From positions 1 to 59,210 of the IMG/VR virus record IMGVR_UViG_3300035670_000236: a stretch of 59,210 bases of DNA, one strand, 5' to 3'. The notes beneath the pieces were generated by a model. That model did no database searches. It was not told the origin of the DNA and saw nothing but the letters and a program-made list of their open reading frames with translations. This DNA comes from a virus. Taxonomy: Duplodnaviria > Caudoviricetes. Each line of letters starts with the position of its first letter. The first letter of the stretch is position 1. The translations under genes and the position numbers were made by a program. Shown here in pieces: positions 2,940-41,002 of this stretch.

Positions 2940-4010
2940 TTAGTATATTACCAAATCTTGATAGTAATCTTCCGCTGCTCTCTCTGCTGTTACAAGAACG
3001 CTCTCTTGTAGAGACAAAGTAAGAGTAACTTCAGTTGGATAGTATTTGTTTTGATCGGCTTCAAAGAATGCAAGTTTACTTTGAGAACCGTAGTTAATTG
3101 ATACGTTCTCAATCATGCACAGTTCAGAGTCGAATAAAAGATTTGTTTGACCACCTACAAGAAGATAGATTGAGTATTTAACCATGTCAGGATAGATGAA
3201 CGTCAATGGAGTACCATAATCTTTTTCATCAGTTCCTAAACCAATTAATGCAGCAGTTGCGGAGTCTACTTCCTGCGCCAGAGCAACTTGCTGTGCTTGT
3301 TCGGCAGTTTGATCTTTATTTTGTTCAGTCGATGCAGCACTTGCAATATTTTCTACTTCAGTATTTCCTAATGAAGACAATGCATCGGTATTAATATCTG
3401 TTTTTGGTGATGATGCTACTCTGAAAGATGCAATGATTTGATTCATCGCTTCAGCCTCATCAGGTGATGTTGGTCGCATTGTAAACGAAGGTTGAAATCT
3501 TCTAAACACAGGACCTGCATAAGCAAGTTGTTGAAAGTTATTGACCATTCTACGCATTAAGAATTCTGCTTGGGTTTTACCACCTGCACCCATACCAGCA
3601 GCAAATCCTGTAACGCCAACCATTGCGTTTAAAATTTGTCGTGTTAAACTTTCATATGCACTTTTTCCTACTGCTTCAAGCAGGTTCATGCCAAGACCAA
3701 ACTGATCTAAGAATGATTTTGCTGGATTGTCTACACCAGTCAATCCAGCATAAGATGCACCGAATGCTTGAACGGATTGCCAACCTTGAGATAGGTTAGA
3801 GTCGAATCCTGTTGTAAATCGAACATAAATAACAGGTGCAGATGGTTCTGGTTCGCCCCTATTGTTATAAAATTCAAATCGTGCAACTGGTATCGCATAT
3901 GGTGCGTGTGCAGAATCAATGCTACCATTTTCCCCAACGCCGAAATATAGATTATCCGTTGTTGGATAGTATCCGGCGCTAGGTTTTTCTGTGTATAAGA
4001 CGAATGCCAT
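2940..4010 (-). CDS. gp48: Baseplate tail-tube cap gp48-like
   Basis: FRRFQPSFTMRPTSPDEAEAMNQII..FR, YP, C..ENVSINY, PTEVTLTLSLQE motifs; synteny. Confidence 0.75.
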   Translation of the reverse strand: MAFVLYTEKPSAGYYPTTDNLYFGVGENGSIDSAHAPYAIPVARFEFYNNRGEPEPSAPVIYVRFTTGFDSNLSQGWQSVQAFGASYAGLTGVDNPAKSFLDQFGLGMNLLEAVGKSAYESLTRQILNAMVGVTGFAAGMGAGGKTQAEFLMRRMVNNFQQLAYAGPVFRRFQPSFTMRPTSPDEAEAMNQIIASFRVASSPKTDINTDALSSLGNTEVENIASAASTEQNKDQTAEQAQQVALAQEVDSATAALIGLGTDEKDYGTPLTFIYPDMVKYSIYLLVGGQTNLLFDSELCMIENVSINYGSQSKLAFFEADQNKYYPTEVTLTLSLQESVLVTAERAAEDYYQDLVIY

Positions 4011-4046
4011 TAATGTTCCCTTGTGAAACGAAAGTTTGATCTCATC

Positions 4047-4054
4047 TATTTATG
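4047..4054 (-). promoter_or_regulatory. T4-type late promoter variant (CATAAATA) for gp48/gp53
   Basis: One mismatch to TATAAATA, upstream of gp48, overlapping the gp4 ATG. Confidence 0.5.
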
Positions 4055-4495
4055 TCATACAAAGGTCGATTCAAGCCAAAAAACTATCAAAAATATAAAG
4101 GTGACTCAACAAATGTCATCTATCGCAGTCTACTTGAAAGAAAATTCATGGTATATTGCGATTTGAATCCAAATATTCTTGAATGGTCTTCTGAAGAGGT
4201 TGTTATACCGTATAAGTCTCCCATCGACAATCGATGGCATCGATATTTTGTGGATTTTTATATCAAGTATAAAGACAAAAAGGGCGAAATTAAGTCCGCG
4301 CTAATCGAAATCAAGCCGCATGTTCAAACACAACCCCCAAAACGTAAAGATACACCAACCGGTAGACCTACAAGACGGTTTTTAAATGAAGTCGCAACAT
4401 GGGGTGTCAATCAAGCAAAGTGGAAAGCAGCAACAGAGTTCTGCGAAGACAGATTATGGGAATTTAAGATCATTACAGACAAAGATTTGAGATAA
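4052..4495 (+). CDS. gp4: Head completion nuclease gp4-like
   Basis: YKGRFKPKNYQKYKGD...YRSLLERKFM...WSSEE...HRYFVDF...EIKP...NQAKWKAA. Confidence 0.93.
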   Translation: MSYKGRFKPKNYQKYKGDSTNVIYRSLLERKFMVYCDLNPNILEWSSEEVVIPYKSPIDNRWHRYFVDFYIKYKDKKGEIKSALIEIKPHVQTQPPKRKDTPTGRPTRRFLNEVATWGVNQAKWKAATEFCEDRLWEFKIITDKDLR

Positions 4496-17491: not shown

Positions 17492-17574
17492 AATTTTCTC
17501 CTAGTCAATTGAGCGAGATTGCTCACTTTTATCTATAGAGTTTCAATCAGTTTTAAACTAAGTCAAATCATGAA

Positions 17575-17883
17575 TAAGTGCTAGTTGATTCTGTTGCCAA
17601 GTTCAACTAGCAAAACTCCGGTCAGCGTTTAGGCTGCCAGTGCAAATCTTTCATCGTTTGCATTTACTTCGTTTGCTTGATTTACGGTCATCGCCTACCG
17701 TGCTGTCCACTCTGTTACTCTTTGCCCTGTCGAAACCAGGTCCGGCCCATCATAAGCATACTCGGAAGATTTATTTACCGCTGACTATTACTCTTCCCCA
17801 GCGTCACTCTAGTATGCTTATGGTGGACCGGGCGGGAATCGAACCCGCGTCCAGAACACTTTTCTCTTTGCTTCATACAGCAA
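17575..17883 (-). ncRNA. ssrA: Two-piece (circularly permuted) tmRNA; outer ends approximate
   Basis: Acceptor piece with GGTTCGATTCC T-arm and CCGGTCCACCA end (17821); paired intervening segment; coding piece starting GGGCCGG (17748, G3:U70); tag ANDERFALAA* at 17661-17629. Confidence 0.92.
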
Positions 17884-17888
17884 TATTT

Positions 17889-18665
17889 TTATTTATATCG
17901 CTTAACCGTATCTATAATTGCATCCTGCACATTTCGCATCTTATAGACAGACTCCAGTTTCTTGGTACTCAATACACAATTACTTCTTGGTGCTTTTGTG
18001 ATTGCCCTAAACTCATCATCAGTCATCCATTCTTTGTTTAGTGCAAGTGCATCAGAAAGTTTTCTTGTGGTTGTGCTGCCAATATTTGTTACATTGTAAA
18101 TACCATACGCAGGTTTTTTAACAATGAAATGGGTAACACAATCTGCTAGGTCTTCTACTTGAGTTACACTATTTTCTTTGTCGATAAGTTTATCATAAGC
18201 CTCTAGTTTTGTCAAGAGATTTTTCTGAGTTCTATCTGGTCCGAATGGCATACGAATACGGAACAAATAAGACTTGTTCATGTATGGTTTGAGTAGCGTC
18301 TGTTCAAGTCCTTTACATGCACTATAGAATGATGCATTGTTGAAGGTAAAGTTTGGGGCATCTTCTTCCGTAAATTCTTTTTCGTATCCTGTATATACGC
18401 ATCCACTAGAGATATGGATGATTGGTCCGTTAAAATTTTTTTCCAGTTCAAGTGGATATAGAATATTACCTTGAACACATTCGTCTTTGTGTATTTCACA
18501 CGCATCAACGTTTGGTACTCCTGTGTATCCTGCGGCATTAATTATAAACTTAACGCCTCTTGGAATTACATCTTTGTGACTAAGCCAAAGATACTTAAAG
18601 TCATCACTTGACAACTTCTTCGCAATATACTGTCCAATATAACCGTGACCAATCAGTCCAATCAT
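17889..18665 (-). CDS. NAD-dependent sugar epimerase/reductase (RmlD-like)
   Basis: GHGYIG, INAAGYTG.PNVDACE, ISSGCVY, YSACK, PRSNCVL. Confidence 0.85.
   Translation of the reverse strand: MIGLIGHGYIGQYIAKKLSSDDFKYLWLSHKDVIPRGVKFIINAAGYTGVPNVDACEIHKDECVQGNILYPLELEKNFNGPIIHISSGCVYTGYEKEFTEEDAPNFTFNNASFYSACKGLEQTLLKPYMNKSYLFRIRMPFGPDRTQKNLLTKLEAYDKLIDKENSVTQVEDLADCVTHFIVKKPAYGIYNVTNIGSTTTRKLSDALALNKEWMTDDEFRAITKAPRSNCVLSTKKLESVYKMRNVQDAIIDTVKRYK
17890..17897 (-). promoter_or_regulatory. T4 late promoter TATAAATA upstream of tmRNA
   Basis: Exact consensus just upstream of the acceptor piece. Confidence 0.7.
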
Positions 18666-32543: not shown

Positions 32544-33059
32544 TTAAGAGTTTAGAATCTTTGCTACAGAATTGATGATAGCAGCAATTCTGCCGATATC
32601 ACGCAACTGTTCAACTGTATAGCCTTCTTTCTTCAATGTATCGTAATGTGCCTTCACGCAGAAATGACACTTGCCAACAATAGATGCAGCCAATGAATAT
32701 GCTTCAAATCTATCCTTAGTGGTTCCGCCGTGGCTTGCAATAGCATTCATACGCAATTGAGCAGGCAGTCCCTTTAGATTAGGGTCTTCTGCCATTTCAA
32801 CATATGGATACCACACATTGTTTTGTGCCATGATAGCACCAGCAGTCAATGCAGAATTAAACTCTGCACCACTTTCAAACATTCCTGCTTGAATGAATGA
32901 AACCAACTTACCATTACCAGTAGACATTGCTGCGGCTAATGCACAACCCATAGCAACATCACCAGGTAATGTGCTACGAGACATAACAGCATCTAAGTTT
33001 AGTTTTGCATCTTTAGCGTATTCAGGTAACGCTTCTTTAATTTGATCTACCCAACTCAT
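32544..33059 (-). CDS. ahpD: Alkyl hydroperoxidase AhpD
   Basis: LPEYAKD.KLNL, MAQNNVWY, LRMN, CHFCV.AH. Confidence 0.93.
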   Translation of the reverse strand: MSWVDQIKEALPEYAKDAKLNLDAVMSRSTLPGDVAMGCALAAAMSTGNGKLVSFIQAGMFESGAEFNSALTAGAIMAQNNVWYPYVEMAEDPNLKGLPAQLRMNAIASHGGTTKDRFEAYSLAASIVGKCHFCVKAHYDTLKKEGYTVEQLRDIGRIAAIINSVAKILNS

Positions 33060-33451
33060 TTAGTTTTCTCCGCTAGTTCTTTGTAGCCTGCCCAACTTGG
33101 GTGAATGCCATCTTTTGAAAGACGAGTGATTGGAAGAATGATATCGTTATTTTCCTTTGCAACTTGAAAAACATCCGCTTGAATGTTTGTTTTGATTGCA
33201 GGCATGATCCAGAATACTCTATCTGCATCCACTTTGTTACGCATCTTTCGTAATTCAGAAATCGTTTTAACTCCAGCGTGATCATTCGAACCCAAACTGA
33301 TAATGACTGTTTTAGCAGTCAAATCTTTTTTCAAGTAGTCGCGATTCCATTGCCAAGTATTCCAACCACCTTTAGCATATGCGACACACTCCTGCCTTTG
33401 CTGGTGTGTGCCGACTGCAATGCTATCACCTAAAATTAGACATTCTAACAT
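33056..33451 (-). CDS. SGNH/GDSL hydrolase-like protein
   Basis: GDSIA, SLGSND, DGIHP. Confidence 0.85.
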   Translation of the reverse strand: MLECLILGDSIAVGTHQQRQECVAYAKGGWNTWQWNRDYLKKDLTAKTVIISLGSNDHAGVKTISELRKMRNKVDADRVFWIMPAIKTNIQADVFQVAKENNDIILPITRLSKDGIHPSWAGYKELAEKTK

Positions 33452-33987
33452 TAAAGGGTTTCGCCGCCGATTGTGCGATTACACGCACACAATTCACCAG
33501 TCTGAAGTGCGTCAAGAATACGCAAAGTTTCTTCAGGTGAACGACCAACGTTCAGGTTGTTTACAGTAACATGCTGAATGATATTGTCAGGATCAACAAT
33601 AAAAGTAGCGCGAAGAGCAGCCCCGGCAGGTGCATAGAACACTCCTAATTGTTCAATTAAAGAAACATCATAATCTCTACTAGTATCTGCGAACTGAATG
33701 TGCTTAATTTTCTTCAAGTCTTCATGTGCATTCTGCCATGCAAGTTTACAGAATTCGTTATCTGTAGAACCAGTCAACAGAACAGCATCGCGGTCTGCAA
33801 AGTCTTGGAAGAGTTTATCGTATGCTACAATTTCAGTAGGACACACGAATGTGAAATCTTTAGGGTAGTAGACGATAATTTTCCACTTACCCATGAATGA
33901 GTCTTCATTGATATTAAAAAATTGATCACTACCAGGATTTACTCCTGTCACTACAAATGAGGGTAACTTATCACCAACGGTTAACAT
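33451..33987 (-). CDS. ahpC: Peroxiredoxin AhpC
   Basis: YPKDFTFVCPTE, RATFIVDP, GELC. Confidence 0.96.
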   Translation of the reverse strand: MLTVGDKLPSFVVTGVNPGSDQFFNINEDSFMGKWKIIVYYPKDFTFVCPTEIVAYDKLFQDFADRDAVLLTGSTDNEFCKLAWQNAHEDLKKIKHIQFADTSRDYDVSLIEQLGVFYAPAGAALRATFIVDPDNIIQHVTVNNLNVGRSPEETLRILDALQTGELCACNRTIGGETL

Positions 33988-34729: not shown

Positions 34730-36151
34730 TTAAAGAACTTTGTAGCGTTCATCCATGATGGTTTTCATCATGACTGCTACAGGAGTGAAGTTATCGATAT
34801 CTCCCGATAGGATAGGCTTCACAATCGCTGGCGAGAAGCCAGACACTAGCGCAGTACCACTCTTATCGAACTTGACTGGCGCGTTGCCGTAAGATGCGTT
34901 CAGGTTCCAGAACACCACTTGTGGTACTTTGTAACCGGCTGCAACATACTTGCGTTCAATCATTTCGATTGCAGAATTGTCATGCTTTACGCATTGGTCA
35001 AACTGCATATCGGACAGAATCAATACCATTGCTGGCATTTCTTCTTGTGGTACGTTACCCTTAACCGCAACATCAAGAATCTTGTTGAATGCTGCGTGAA
35101 GGTTAGTGTTCATCTCCCACTTAGATTTAACCATTTGGTCAATCTTCTGGTTGATGTTACCCTTCATGTGTACCAACTCTGGCTTGTGCGAGAAAGTTAG
35201 GAACGTGTCCTTGAACTTTCCAGTGTTCTTGTCTGCAAGATACAGTCCCAGAGAGACTGCAACTTCAAGGCAAGAAAGTTTTGTGTTCTTTCCTGCTGGA
35301 CAAGTCATAGAGCCAGATACGTCAACAAGAGGAAGGATGTTTGCATCACCAACATAGTTAGGCAATGCTTCCCATTGCTTTTGAATCAAGTCCATTTCTG
35401 TCTTGTCAAAAGAAACGCCATAAGAGTTGATGCGACCTTTTAGCACATCGTATGGATATGCAACAGATGCATTTACTTTTACAGTCTTGTCTTCACCCTT
35501 TACAAGCGAAGCAACATACTCGGCATACTTTTGAGTATTACGGTTGAATGCTTTCTTGTAACGAGCCGATGCTACAGAAGGCACATGGCTGAAGTTGATG
35601 GAATCCCATTCTTTAGCGCACATGTCTTGTTCTACAACCTTAGTCAATTCGACTAGGGACTTACGATAGAACTTAGGCGACATTCCGAAGAATTCGCGAA
35701 TCTCAACAGCAAGTTTACCTTGACGAGGAGTCCACTTTGCAGCCAAGCCATTACGCTGGCGCAGAGCATCACCAAGCATGGTAAATGCTTCAGACTTTAG
35801 TTCCTTGTCATTGAAGACAAAGATATCGTCCCAACGTCCCAATTCAGGAACTTTACGAAGCAAAGCCTTTGCTGCTTCTTTATCGTTCTTTTCTAGATAT
35901 ACTAGAATGTCACGAAACAATTGGCGTTCACCAGCACCACCACGGGCATCACGAAGCCATGCCGCTACGCGCAAAGCAAGGTCGCGGTTCTCTGCCATTG
36001 CAGCAGAGAATGCTGGAACGATGTTCTTACCGCGGGACGCACCAGCGTTATAGAACAGGTCAACTACAGCGTTGGCAGTTGACTTACGAGCCTTCATACC
36101 ATTTGCGGTACGAGCCTCTTGATTTACTACTGCATTTACAAAAGTGTTCAT
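34730..36151 (-). CDS. DUF2828 protein (Ro60/TROVE-like helical domain + vWA)
   Basis: RDARGGAGER..FR, GRWDD, AAKWTPR, DVSGSM (MIDAS), LSDMQFD, VFWNL, SGFS. Confidence 0.85.
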   Translation of the reverse strand: MNTFVNAVVNQEARTANGMKARKSTANAVVDLFYNAGASRGKNIVPAFSAAMAENRDLALRVAAWLRDARGGAGERQLFRDILVYLEKNDKEAAKALLRKVPELGRWDDIFVFNDKELKSEAFTMLGDALRQRNGLAAKWTPRQGKLAVEIREFFGMSPKFYRKSLVELTKVVEQDMCAKEWDSINFSHVPSVASARYKKAFNRNTQKYAEYVASLVKGEDKTVKVNASVAYPYDVLKGRINSYGVSFDKTEMDLIQKQWEALPNYVGDANILPLVDVSGSMTCPAGKNTKLSCLEVAVSLGLYLADKNTGKFKDTFLTFSHKPELVHMKGNINQKIDQMVKSKWEMNTNLHAAFNKILDVAVKGNVPQEEMPAMVLILSDMQFDQCVKHDNSAIEMIERKYVAAGYKVPQVVFWNLNASYGNAPVKFDKSGTALVSGFSPAIVKPILSGDIDNFTPVAVMMKTIMDERYKVL

Positions 36152-36165
36152 AGTATTTCCTTTTC

Positions 36166-36229
36166 AACAGGTTAATTTTTGCGTTTACAATTACAAGTTG
36201 TATGCTTTAGATGTTGCTGAACTTAACCT
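36166..36229 (-). ncRNA. Y-RNA-like CAGCAA element 1 (displays Thr-TGT anticodon stem-loop)
   Basis: AGGTTAA-GTT-CAGCAA...TACAA-CTTGTAA-TTGTA...TTAACCT-GTT. Confidence 0.65.
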
Positions 36230-36236
36230 AAAAAAC

Positions 36237-36356
36237 AACAGAATAGTTTTCTTCTTTTTGTTTTATATGAGAACTCGAAACTCATATCGTCCGGCGAACC
36301 AGACCGTCTTGATACGGCAATGAAGCCGTTAAGTAAATTGTTGCTGAACCTATTCT
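36237..36356 (-). ncRNA. Y-RNA-like CAGCAA element 2
   Basis: AGAATAG-GTT-CAGCAA...three hairpins...CTATTCT-GTT. Confidence 0.65.
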
Positions 36357-36370
36357 TTCATCAAAAAAAT

Positions 36371-36594
36371 AACGGGATGATCGGGTTGGTGTTAAACTGG
36401 TTCTTAAACCTCGGTGCCCCTTTCGGCGTATCCCCACCGTAATCAAATGGATTACCATTATTTCGTAGAATTATCTACATCAGATTTAATTCAAGTTTAC
36501 TCTCTAGCCGTTTAAAAATTACCTCTTACGAGGGTCCTCCTGTATCACGGCACTCTATAGTCATGTGATTTTTAGAGTTTGCTGTAGTCATCCC
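36371..36594 (-). ncRNA. Y-RNA-like CAGCAA element 3 (large, multi-hairpin)
   Basis: GGGATGA-CTA-CAGCAA...TCATCCC-GTT. Confidence 0.65.
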
Positions 36595-36616
36595 TTTTTC
36601 ATCATCAATACTGTGT

Positions 36617-36645
36617 ATTGTAGCAGAATTTTCTGCTCTTGTCAA
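36617..36645 (-). promoter_or_regulatory. Sigma70 promoter for elements 3-2-1 and DUF2828
   Basis: TTGACA-17-TACAAT with TG extension. Confidence 0.8.
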
Positions 36646-36647
36646 GT

Positions 36648-36737
36648 TGGCGGAAGCGGTGAGATTCGAACTCACGGAACATTTCTGTTCGTCTGTTTTC
36701 AAGACAGGTGCAATAAACCGGGCTCTGCCACGCTTCC
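36648..36737 (-). tRNA. tRNA-Ser (TGA)
   Basis: Class II cloverleaf, GCCA. Confidence 0.92.
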
Positions 36738-37001: not shown

Positions 37002-37190
37002 TTAATCGTTATTAATCTTTTCTTTATCTTCAGGTAACATATTGCCTTGAAGAACTTCTCCATCTTCGTTTGTTTTTTCTTTGTCTAAATCACGACCAAA
37101 GATTGCATCCCATCGTCTTTCATACTCATCTTGAGTAACGCTAAAAGGTCTAGGAGAACTTCCTTTACCACCATGCCATTTATTGCCCAT
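37002..37190 (-). CDS. Small conserved phage protein (GGKGSSPRP...WDAIF)
   Basis: ORF with SD. Confidence 0.7.
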   Translation of the reverse strand: MGNKWHGGKGSSPRPFSVTQDEYERRWDAIFGRDLDKEKTNEDGEVLQGNMLPEDKEKINND

Positions 37191-37743
37191 TCAGAACTCC
37201 TACACTATGTTGAGGATTATTGGGAGAATGGGGAAGATCGAAAACAAATGTTATTCTATCTTCTTTACCATTGCTAAATGCCCAATGAGGTTTTTTGTTG
37301 TCGAACCAGAAAAACATTCCTGGTTTAATTTGTTTTGTTTCTCCACCTACGTTATACAAGTATTCTCCCTGTAAACATAGATGGTATCTGTCTCTAGTCA
37401 AATAATATGAACCATCATCAATATGTTCACCAACACTATCACCAACGTAAAGTCTGAAAAACGCAGCCCTTGAAGTTTGTTCGATGTTATAACTTCTCAA
37501 AAATTTATGTATCTCTGTATACTTATCATGCAAAGGTGTATTTCTTTGCAACTCAGAATTCTTAGGACTCATTTCAGGACTTGGAACTACTGCCATGACA
37601 AGAGGCATGAAGCCATATGGATTTGTTTCTCCTGCAATGTTTGGATACTCTTTAATTGCATTCCAATCATTAGGATTGTCCAATACTTGTTGAAGTATAT
37701 TTTTCACTTCAACATTGTCGTTGATGACAATAAAATTACTCAT
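37180..37743 (-). CDS. Asp/Asn beta-hydroxylase-like 2OG-Fe(II) oxygenase
   Basis: HID.G.YY..RDRYH, WFDNK.PH, RI..VFD. Confidence 0.85.
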   Translation of the reverse strand: MSNFIVINDNVEVKNILQQVLDNPNDWNAIKEYPNIAGETNPYGFMPLVMAVVPSPEMSPKNSELQRNTPLHDKYTEIHKFLRSYNIEQTSRAAFFRLYVGDSVGEHIDDGSYYLTRDRYHLCLQGEYLYNVGGETKQIKPGMFFWFDNKKPHWAFSNGKEDRITFVFDLPHSPNNPQHSVGVLNGQ

Positions 37744-38402
37744 CGTGGATACTCCAATAATTCCATATCACTCATGTCTTGATAGTTATATCTATCATAG
37801 TAATCATGATTTGACATTCCAATTGGCATAGCATTCATAGCAACAACAATACGATAAGAGCAATGTGTTGGTGAAGTTGAATGAGTAGCCCAAGCAGGAA
37901 ACATCACTAATGTTCCAGGCTTGAATTTAAATTCTTCTTGTGTTTTCAATAAAGGTTCTGAATCAAAATCATGCGGTGGTTGAATAACATATTTTTCGAT
38001 ATCGCTGTTATGAAATACTGTACCACTTGCTCCACCATCAGCATCGAAAAGATGAAATGATCCACCTAAAAAACTATTATGATGAGAATGTTTGTGATGA
38101 AATCCACCTTTACGTTGTCTTGTTGCCCACATGCTAGTGATACAACAATCCTTTTGATATCCCATCAGTTGCATTACACTCTCTGTGCATGAATGAAAAA
38201 ACTCAGTCAATTTTGATACGTTCTTATCTTTATGTAGATTTGCTCTAGTAATTTGCAAACCATTCTTTTCTCTTTCAGAGAGATAAAGATGCTCCTGTGC
38301 AAAGTATCGAACAAGATATTCTTCATCTTGCTTGAAATCTGGATATTCAAATCTCCACACGGGAGTAAAAAACAATTTATGAAACTCTACAGGATTCAAC
38401 AT
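37740..38402 (-). CDS. Putative 2OG-Fe(II) oxygenase
   Basis: FFTPVW, HSHHNS, G.LVMFPAW..H, R..AMN; start trimmed because the track start lies in tRNA-Pro. Confidence 0.8.
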   Translation of the reverse strand: MLNPVEFHKLFFTPVWRFEYPDFKQDEEYLVRYFAQEHLYLSEREKNGLQITRANLHKDKNVSKLTEFFHSCTESVMQLMGYQKDCCITSMWATRQRKGGFHHKHSHHNSFLGGSFHLFDADGGASGTVFHNSDIEKYVIQPPHDFDSEPLLKTQEEFKFKPGTLVMFPAWATHSTSPTHCSYRIVVAMNAMPIGMSNHDYYDRYNYQDMSDMELLEYPR

Positions 38403-38421
38403 CACAAACTCCCTACGATAT

Positions 38422-38499
38422 TGGTCCGGGTGGAGAGATTCGAACTCCCGACCCTCTGCTCCCAAAGCAGATGCGCTAACCAGACTGCGCTACACCCGG
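38422..38499 (-). tRNA. tRNA-Pro (TGG)
   Basis: Cloverleaf, CCA. Confidence 0.92.
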
Positions 38500-39710: not shown

Positions 39711-39785
39711 TGGTGGTGATAAGTGGTATCGATCCACTCTCCTCGGCTTATGAAACCGGTACGCATCCGTCTACGTCATATCACC
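39711..39785 (-). tRNA. tRNA-Met (CAT), variant T-loop
   Basis: Cloverleaf, ATCGATA T-loop, CCA. Confidence 0.75.
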
Positions 39786-40443: not shown

Positions 40444-40448
40444 AAAAC

Positions 40449-40581
40449 TACCATATAGAAACACTCTGACCAGTGCTTGAATCTGCGGTGACCCTACTCT
40501 TCACGGCTGGTCCTTGCATTGGTCGACATTGGCAAGTATTTCAGTTGTTCCGCTGTAGTCACACAGAATGTTTTTATATGG
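40449..40581 (-). other. Long stem enclosing a ~95-nt insert (processing stem or small RNA)
   Basis: CCATATAAAAACATTCTG...CAGAGTGTTTCTATATGG. Confidence 0.5.
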
Positions 40582-40653
40582 TAGGGGCACAGAGAATCGA
40601 ACTCTGATTAATAGGTTAAAAGCCTACTACTTTAGCCGTTAAGTTATACCCCC
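40579..40653 (-). tRNA. tRNA-Lys (TTT)
   Basis: Cloverleaf, CCA. Confidence 0.88.
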
Positions 40654-40872: not shown

Positions 40873-40875
40873 AAT

Positions 40876-41002
40876 ACCATTTGAAATGTCTACTGCACTA
40901 TTTGCTATGCTCATGCGGGATAGTCTAGAATTACCGCAATTATATACATAGTTACTCAGGCATGATCAAGCCCATGGCTTACAGTAGACATATCAAATGG
41001 TA
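40876..41002 (-). other. Long stem enclosing an ~85-nt insert
   Basis: ACCATTTGATATGTCTACTG...CAGTAGACATTTCAAATGGT. Confidence 0.5.

Follow-up and report, generated by a model that had tools for sequence, protein, structure and literature searches.

The window analysed here, a 59-kb fragment (59,210 nt; estimated completeness 36%) of the phage record IMGVR_UViG_3300035670_000236 (Caudoviricetes), carries on its minus strand a 61-nt element, designated E2, in which a closing stem and a single-stranded motif frame a hairpin shaped like the anticodon arm of a tRNA. E2 lies directly upstream of a gene whose protein is predicted to have the Ro60 fold. We lean, with slightly better than even confidence, towards a reading in which E2 belongs to a family of small structured RNAs serving this downstream Ro60-like protein as its Y-RNA counterparts. 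The constant frame would serve as the handle for the divergent Ro-like protein, and the enclosed cargo would be the displayed module: a whole tRNA-like body, a circularly permuted tRNA, other hairpins or an anticodon arm. E2 would then be the limiting case, in which the anticodon arm alone is put on display.

According to the portion of PMC4201824 on which we draw, Y RNAs are encoded next to Ro60, have paired ends and, in bacteria and phages, mimic tRNAs; the portion of PMC12135203 used here describes the Ro60 of Thermus phage phiLo, which binds two Y-like RNAs encoded upstream of its own gene. By analogy, we infer that the Ro-like protein of the window binds the frame; the displayed anticodon arm would in turn engage a partner of its own. 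Ro60 and Y RNAs are conserved from bacteria to humans, and the reason for the tRNA mimicry of bacterial Y RNAs is not understood. The phage family offers a natural series of such mimics (whole, permuted, anticodon arm alone) on what would be one handle. Should the protein indeed bind the frame, a function would be found for DUF2828/DUF7788, a family that Pfam names only as a domain of unknown function, a new and easily recognised class of Y RNAs would emerge, and the arm-only members would reveal what part of the mimic counts in their case. Our literature searches found no earlier description of the frame or of RNA partners of DUF2828 proteins.

The E2 element and its framed relatives

An earlier note on this DNA, made from the sequence alone, had placed at 36166-36229 a minimal element displaying a Thr(UGU) anticodon stem-loop and abutting the ribosome-binding site of a DUF2828 gene. 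The span proved right, with the element lying on the minus strand and running from 36229 to 36169 plus a tail. The hairpin TACAA-CTTGTAA-TTGTA, with its 5-bp stem and 7-nt loop of the form C32-U33-UGU-A37-A38, is present on that strand, and the coordinates do set the element against the ribosome-binding site. The parts of E2, all on the minus strand, are as follows.

36169-36229, read 36229 to 36169: E2, a 61-nt framed element made of closing stem, motif and anticodon-arm-like hairpin; matched by the covariance model R1 (described below) with 73.9 bits, E 1.3e-15
36223-36229: 5' strand of the closing stem, AGGUUAA (DNA AGGTTAA), 7 bp, pairing with UUAACCU
36222: a single free base, G, between the 5' strand of the stem and the motif
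36214-36221: single-stranded motif UUCAGCAA (DNA TTCAGCAA), beside the 5' strand of the stem
Between motif and hairpin: spacer CAUCUAAAGCA
36186-36202: anticodon-arm-like hairpin UACAA-CUUGUAA-UUGUA, with the triplet UGU at 36195-36193
Between hairpin and 3' strand of the stem: spacer AACGCAAAAA
36169-36175: 3' strand of the closing stem, UUAACCU (DNA TTAACCT), the complement of AGGUUAA
36165-36168: conserved 3' tail GUUG, which with the last two stem bases reads CUGUU; 3 nt before the ribosome-binding site
About 36162-36156: Shine-Dalgarno sequence AAGGAAA of the Ro-like gene, 3' of E2

Downstream of the tail come AAAAGGAAAUACU and then, at 36151, the AUG of the 473-aa gene, so that 17 nt separate the end of E2 from the start codon. 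Folded alone, E2 reaches -7.2 kcal/mol in RNAfold (z = -0.89), and 39 of 200 shuffled sequences fold at least as well. The fold of the single copy is not beyond chance, and what supports it is the comparison with its relatives. At 36165-36229, no tRNA was called by ARAGORN or by the Rfam tRNA model RF00005. A self-cleaving ribozyme or another known RNA at E2 was considered and rejected, an Rfam search of 36050-36700 at E<=10 having returned only noise.

Five framed elements were found in the window, all of them on the minus strand. Four were detected by a script whose pattern is a 7-nt arm, a single base, UUCAGCAA, a cargo, the 7-nt complement of the arm and GUU, and the fifth, E0, by a relaxed search. 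The members other than E2, together with a promoter-like site near three of them, are listed below, again on the minus strand.

36374-36594: E0, 221 nt, arms GGGAUGA/UCAUCCC, motif variant CUACAGCAA; related to an element at 2513-2730 of the related locus L017
36240-36356: E1, 117 nt, arms AGAAUAG/CUAUUCU, z = -2.84, R1 28.6 bits
38964-39077: E3, 114 nt, circularly permuted tRNA cargo, z = -3.14, R1 42.3 bits
40130-40185: E4, a 56-nt minimal element between tRNA-Met and tRNA-Asn, R1 73.8 bits
36617-36645: sigma-70-like promoter TTGACA-17-TACAAT, TG-extended, a consensus match only (11 of 12 positions)

The arms vary from copy to copy yet are always complementary (GGGAUGA, AGAAUAG, AGGUUAA, AGGAUAC), and over the whole record the motif pattern UUCAGCAA occurs four times on the gene strand against none on the opposite strand. 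E1 encloses three hairpins, including a conserved GAGUUUCGAGUUCUC hairpin (class C), and E4 a hairpin CUUUA-CUGGAAA-UAAAG with the triplet GGA. The cargo of E3 runs in the order anticodon arm (UCU; UUCGC-CUUCUAA-GCGAG), T arm (GUUGG-UUCGACU-CCAAC), closed acceptor hairpin (UUUUUCC-ACUAG-GGAAAAA) and D arm (GAUC-AAUGGUA-GAUC), and it scores 30.7 bits with the Rfam YrlA model and 30.5 bits with the tRNA model. A pseudoknot within E1 and within E2, formed by the CAACA that follows the motif and the UGUUG that follows the 3' strand, was also considered and rejected: CAACA is not conserved, and relatives have CAAAC, CAAUC or CAAAU in its place.

The neighbouring Ro-like protein led us to 64 related loci (56-91% protein identity; 462,634 nt in total). 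The regular-expression form of the frame occurs in this DNA 103 times on the gene strand and never on the other, with two occurrences in reversed-sequence controls. The covariance model R1, built from 35 minimal elements (alignment A1), gave 127 matches at E<=0.01 in these loci, all on the gene strand, and it recovers E1 to E4, that is, four of the five window elements; E0, with its large cargo and variant motif, went unmatched. The closing helix pairs in 100% of the alignment cells (35/35 sequences), and five of its seven pairs covary, with changes on both sides; only G2:C and U5:A are constant. For the hairpin helix, the share of paired cells is 90.9%, and all five of its pairs covary. The observed covariation score was reached by none of 500 shuffles, and motif columns 12 and 14-18 are invariant. 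On this comparative evidence we take the framed elements to be a real RNA family. Its constant part consists of a U-rich stretch followed by AG at the 5' side, a 7-bp stem of free sequence, the single-stranded UUCAGCAA and CUGUU at the 3' side.

What the frame encloses is far less uniform. After the removal of four false matches inside coding sequence, 81 distinct regex-defined elements remained: 25 minimal elements with an anticodon-type arm and 11 without, 18 three-hairpin elements like E1, 16 with a T arm and 11 other large forms. Six of the 16 T-arm members are permuted (T arm, closed acceptor hairpin, D arm), and two have the normal tRNA order. Permuted members match Rfam YrlA at 31.3-39.3 bits (E 3e-5 to 6e-3 in a 46-kb search), whereas normal-order members match the Rfam tRNA model weakly. 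Judged from such likenesses, the cargo appears to be tRNA-derived. Two of the permuted-tRNA frames (L039, 1295-1477, and L032, 1174-1374) have an acceptor hairpin extended by a perfectly paired insertion of 80-100 nt.

Such cargo invites another explanation, namely that the elements are processing punctuation of a polycistronic tRNA transcript, or debris of tRNA genes, with no action in trans. They do sit in tRNA clusters, on the tRNA strand and with short U-rich spacers, and many members have tRNA-like cargo. The T4 tRNA cluster, moreover, holds stable RNAs that are likewise unexplained, species 1 and 2 (rnaC and rnaD), small RNAs on the tRNA strand of a T4-like phage. However, the stems covary and the loops are kept across phages whose Ro-like proteins are 61-91% identical, which is not a pattern of decay, and the A/U-rich stems are unlike those of real tRNAs, hence not recent copies. 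As for T4, rnaC and rnaD show no UUCAGCAA/CUGUU frame on direct reading, the T4 stretch examined holds no Ro-like gene, and the T4 locus gives no R1 match at E<=1, and so species 1 and 2 were rejected as relatives. We consider punctuation or debris quite improbable.

The anticodon-type arm was examined in the 36 distinct minimal elements (49-66 nt). A 5-bp/7-nt hairpin occurs in 27 of them, against a mean of 1.95 in shuffled cargo; with U33 and R37 added, the count is 25 against a mean of 0.23, and 23 have the exact loop form CU-NNN-A(A/G). Nine triplets are represented, TGT in 15 distinct copies, GGA in three, and TTT, CAT, GTT, GCA, GCG, TGG and GTC in one each; in an independent motif-anchored sample, the triplets TAT, TGG, CAT and TTT were read by eye. 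The proposal of the earlier note that homologues should keep the 5-bp/7-nt geometry and vary in the triplet is thus borne out: the C/U32-U33-NNN-A37-A38 form is retained between paralogous elements that differ in the triplet, and the description as a displayed anticodon arm stands. Every one of the 15 distinct TGT-type copies has the loop CTTGTAA, while their stems change with compensation (TACAA/TTGTA, TTCAA/TTGAA, TCAAA/TTTGA, TTTGA/TCAAA). Such a combination indicates that the loop sequence of this group is under selection.

As a tRNA part, the E2 hairpin is a good likeness: 5 bp, a 7-nt loop, C32, U33, A37 and A38, with a loop, CUUGUAA, that the tRNA-Thr(UGU) of the window shares letter for letter. 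At these loop positions, C/U-U ... A-A is the usual pattern among the real tRNAs of these loci. Unlike a tRNA, E2 has no cloverleaf, with D arm, T arm and CCA end all missing, and its stem is A/U-rich. The stem of the window tRNA-Thr(UGU) is different and richer in G/C; therefore, the E2 hairpin is no fresh copy of that gene. The 11 minimal elements without an anticodon-type hairpin, together with start-codon frames that are nearly empty, tell us that the arm is a frequent cargo and not a defining part of the frame.

These features also suit the proposal of the earlier note that the hairpin is a decoy or, in a broader form, a tether: it would imitate the anticodon stem-loop of a particular tRNA and titrate or recruit readers of anticodon loops, such as defence anticodon nucleases, modification enzymes or synthetases. 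The geometry shared with the real tRNAs of these loci, the invariant loop on covarying stems, the change of triplet from element to element (with further triplets in the motif-anchored set) and the identity with the loop of tRNA-Thr(UGU) all agree with it, and some 28 phage tRNAs fit a lifestyle in which tRNA supply matters. On the other hand, the elements have been linked to no nuclease, defence or counter-defence gene, the hairpin is missing from 11 of the 36 minimal elements, the A/U-rich stems are thermodynamically weak, and our literature searches found no phage anticodon-arm decoy described, which would make this one novel but without precedent. As an explanation in its own right we hold it to be unlikely. 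It may, however, be the effector function of a Ro-like ribonucleoprotein rather than a true alternative.

The Ro60-like neighbour and its linkage to the frames

The gene downstream of E2 is the second pillar of the Y-RNA reading.

34730-36151, minus strand: gene for the Ro60-like protein, 473 aa, DUF2828 and DUF7788, with a von Willebrand factor A (vWA) domain

Pfam recognises only DUF2828 and DUF7788 in this protein and makes no TROVE call. An AlphaFold (AF2) model computed from a 43-sequence alignment has a predicted local distance difference test score (pLDDT) of 91.1 and a predicted template-modelling score (pTM) of 0.89. In a Foldseek search of the PDB, its best full-length matches are all Ro60 (E 2e-9 to 8e-7): frog Ro60 (1yvr/2i91; template-modelling score 0.61-0.64, E 2e-9), human Ro60, Deinococcus Rsr (2nvo) and the Ro60 of Thermus phage phiLo (9l5y, 9kop). 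Isolated vWA domains appear only at E>1e-3. The Ro60/TROVE architecture, in which HEAT-like helices form a ring and a vWA domain carries the MIDAS (metal-ion-dependent adhesion site) motif, is borne out by the full-length matches to 1yvr, 2i91, 9l5y and 2nvo. D277, S279, S281, T349 and D381 are invariant in the 43 sequences, and we take these residues to fit a MIDAS site. Based on this model, the DUF2828/DUF7788 neighbour is predicted to have a Ro60 fold. Sequence comparison is less telling: a profile search against PDB sequences places TROVE/Ro60 on top, weakly (E 0.03), and the single protein sequence has no PDB match at E<=1. The family comprises 6191 representative clusters at E<=0.001; the homologue of phage vB_OspM_OC was annotated by its depositors as 'Ro sixty-related', and some fungal homologues are named TROVE by UniRef. 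In another homologous locus, that of Vibrio phage CZ01 (L071), a GIY-YIG homing endonuclease gene at 3677-4270 adjoins the DUF2828 gene on its upstream side, in opposite orientation, and no frame was found there.

The frames keep close company with this gene. Of the 62 loci whose upstream DNA reaches far enough, 56 have a frame ending 15-55 nt, and mostly 15-26 nt, ahead of the Ro-like start codon, regardless of what that frame encloses. We scanned whole with R1 five genomes reached through the Ro-like gene, namely four IMG/VR records that are 98-100% complete and the complete record of Synechococcus phage BUCT-ZZ01, a cultured phage; every match falls in the roughly 9.3 kb upstream of the Ro-like gene and nowhere else. 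BUCT-ZZ01 has the same RNA-gene arrangement as the window, and the idea is directly testable in it since the phage is in culture on a laboratory cyanobacterium, S. elongatus PCC 7942. When the viral collection was scanned with the RNA motif alone, 93 hits in 80 loci were returned, 79 of them with a perfect partner arm. Where the retrieved locus contained a Ro-like gene (34/93), the hit was on the same strand in 34 of 34 cases and upstream in 32 of 34. Among large motif-anchored contigs, four of five have the Ro-like gene; in the fifth, the frames sit right at the contig end.

In the window, the promoter-like site immediately precedes E0, with E1, E2 and the Ro-like gene following. Because there is one sigma-70-like site upstream and no strong terminator before the gene, the three elements and the Ro-like mRNA are probably one transcript. 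With E0, E1, E2 and the gene head to tail behind this promoter, the RNAs would be cut from the common transcript, and discrete RNAs of about 60 nt would accumulate.

Proximity to the start codon also speaks for a role in cis, in which the frame would be an operator that lets the Ro-like protein, or a processing nuclease, act on the translation or stability of its own mRNA, with the hairpin incidental. In favour of such a leader, the frame stands before the start codon in 56 of 62 loci irrespective of cargo, sometimes almost empty, and the E0-E1-E2 series shares a promoter-like site with the gene. Furthermore, the 5' arm of the start-codon frame can often also pair with UUGACCU-GUUC some 95-110 nt inside the gene (6-7 of 7 positions, G-U allowed). 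This site, at 36057-36063 in the window, falls in the codons V-D-L-F and recurs in about 14 related loci; the pairing could be a chance product of the conserved codon run or an alternative pairing. Frames are found, however, also kilobases away between tRNA genes (E3, E4), and on reading the sequence no anti-Shine-Dalgarno pairing of more than 3 bp is evident in E2. Nine of the 15 distinct TGT-type elements lie away from a start codon, 0.1-2.8 kb off in the tRNA cluster, and so the conserved loop is not explained by a role at the start-codon site. The autoregulation at the ribosome-binding site that the earlier note had offered as an alternative thus finds some support as regards the frame and none as regards the hairpin. 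A cis role for the frame is plausible, a purely cis role for the hairpin unlikely, and the leader as a full account of the elements is in our opinion improbable.

Metatranscriptome contigs from four runs in four studies, representing relatives 90-99% alike, span the 5' end of the gene and E2; from these contigs no ends, strand or level are readable, DNA carry-over is possible, and uncovered stretches are uninformative. One of them (depth 3) joins 36163 to 36233 and skips 36164-36232, exactly the E2 unit, and therefore represents a relative without exactly one frame unit. Other contigs have different frames at the same place, which suggests that frames are gained and lost unit by unit. In one run, a 96-nt contig of depth 39 covers part of the E0 cargo (36398-36447; ACGGUGGGGAUACGCCGAAAGGGGCACC...), a block that is also conserved inside the framed element of L017.

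A further rival reading is a miniature inverted-repeat mobile element, for which the 7-nt ends would be terminal inverted repeats at the DNA level. Copy number and cargo differ between relatives, as such an origin would have it, and the contig without E2 agrees with it too. Nevertheless, the repeats differ between copies and are complementary within each copy, which is the mark of RNA pairing and not of recognition by a transposase. The strand bias is strict (127 matches against 0), no transposase was seen among the tested neighbours, and target-site duplications and copies on both strands outside the tRNA/Ro regions are absent. We therefore regard a mobile element as highly improbable.

Resemblance to YrlA and to Dictyostelium Class I RNAs

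The earlier note had E2 alone in view. Its wider context, a framed family whose larger members are tRNA- and YrlA-like and a neighbouring gene product with a predicted Ro60 fold, points first to a Y-RNA-type ribonucleoprotein because of these two features. Among known systems, YrlA (RF02553) with its Ro60/Rsr partner is accordingly the natural comparison. In both cases, a Ro60-fold gene stands beside the RNA genes on the same strand, the RNA ends are paired closed, and there are several RNAs per locus; in the larger phage relatives only, the likeness extends to a permuted T arm, a closed acceptor hairpin and a D arm. The differences concern protein and RNA alike. The phage protein is DUF2828/DUF7788 and not Pfam TROVE by sequence, and the frame is a single 7-bp stem with the single-stranded UUCAGCAA, in contrast to the two-helix bulged Ro-binding stem of YrlA. 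E2 itself lies near a Ro60-fold gene and has the closing stem of 5' and 3' ends. It has no bulged Ro-binding helix and no score at the gathering threshold, and the module of T arm, D arm and closed acceptor, present in E3 and six permuted relatives, is absent from it. What E2 keeps is only the anticodon arm, the very part that YrlA lacks according to the text of PMC4201824 drawn on here.

A second likeness comes from an unexpected quarter. Dictyostelium Class I RNAs (RF01414), as described in the part of PMC7919456 that we use, start with AAG, have a covarying stem followed by a motif, end in CUGU, are about 60 nt long and have a G+C content of 32-41%. The phage elements share with them the (A)AG start, a short terminal stem with compensatory changes, a variable interior, a CUGU end in which the C pairs with the 5' G, a size of some 60 nt and a low G+C content. 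In both, a single-stranded motif ending in CAGCAA follows the 5' strand (Rfam CUUACAGCAA; phage NUUCAGCAA and CUACAGCAA), and the phage motif variants include UACAGCAA. E4 aligns with RF01414 from end to end (32.3 bits, E 7e-4 in a 1.3-kb search; gathering threshold 41.5). E2 has the (A)AG start, the short covarying terminal stem and the CUGU end. It goes unmatched by the Class I model, as does every minimal element of seven other loci at E<=1 in a 46-kb search. Of the 11-nt Class I motif, only the core CAGCAA and the preceding U(U/A) are common to both; the gathering score is not reached, and neither the Dictyostelium upstream sequence element (DUSE) nor a dictyostelid origin applies.

Class I RNAs differ further in being eukaryotic and separately transcribed from a DUSE promoter; they are reported, in the passages of PMC7919456 cited here, as unique to Dictyostelia. 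Their sole known direct binder is Rnp1A/CIBP, a protein with an RNA recognition motif. Protein searches for a Dictyostelium DUF2828 member, for which DDB_G0281243, pulled down with Class I RNAs, was considered, returned phage and fungal homologues only. It is tempting to suppose that the phage frame (AG-stem, U(U/A)CAGCAA, stem-CUGU) is the same handle as that of Class I RNAs, so that one ribonucleoprotein class, made up of DUF2828-type Ro-like proteins and framed RNAs, would extend from T4-like phages to eukaryotes, the phage handle displaying interchangeable tRNA parts, single anticodon arms among them, to tRNA readers, for instance defence anticodon nucleases. We regard this as a long shot. 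The function and the key partner of Class I RNAs have been unclear ever since these RNAs were discovered; were the likeness real, the Ro-like protein would point to a candidate partner for them.

Several observations weigh against a Y-RNA-like partnership of the framed elements with the Ro-like protein. E2 itself found no match in the Rfam search of 36050-36700 (E<=10). The YrlA scores of all phage elements stay under the gathering threshold, those of the larger members reaching at most 39.3 bits against 69, and when they are aligned with YrlA, a fit is seen for the terminal stem and the tRNA-like part, but the second helix of YrlA, presumed to bind Rsr, is not formed and has no counterpart. 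The 'CGAA bulge' of phiLo is not evident in the frames, although no dedicated search for it was made. The linkage to the gene has its gaps as well: 59 of the 93 motif hits have no Ro-like gene in the retrieved DNA, many of them with little downstream sequence but about 20 with more than 5 kb of it; four small frame-bearing fragments are without any Ro-like gene; and one contig (G011) has frames 32 kb from the gene and one frame downstream of it. In the DUF2828 phages Milchi, CZ01 and vB_OspM_OC, neither R1 (E<=1) nor the YrlA model (E<=0.1) found a match, and since these three cultured phages lack an R1 match, the frame is not a general attribute of DUF2828 proteins. Finally, the metatranscriptome contigs attest presence in RNA libraries only and not a discrete small RNA.

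Further features of the window

The T4-type character of the window is apparent from genes for a gp32-like single-strand binding protein, T4 RNase H, PhoH and baseplate/tail proteins. ARAGORN lists 28 RNA genes in it, all on the minus strand and including a permuted transfer-messenger RNA (tmRNA). The latter, at 17538-17928 (minus strand), scores 140.9 bits with the tmRNA_permuted model and 131.2 bits with beta_tmRNA, and its tag reads ANDERFALAA. An additional tRNA, unlisted by ARAGORN, is called by Rfam at 39714-39785 (minus strand; 45.5 bits), with the loop UUUCAUAAG and the anticodon CAU.

Two 21-nt inverted repeats lie between tRNA genes at 40875-41002 and 40448-40584. They are 95% and 90% complementary and enclose 86-95 nt, and their upstream arm begins within the ...ACCA terminus of the tRNA before it (Glu, Lys). 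They resemble long trailer hairpins. The tRNA/Ro region is also interleaved with redox and oxygenase genes on the minus strand, at 32544-33987 and 37180-38465; these encode an AhpC/TSA peroxiredoxin, a CMD-family protein, a GDSL-like protein, an Asp/Arg hydroxylase-like cupin and a 2OG-Fe(II) oxygenase.

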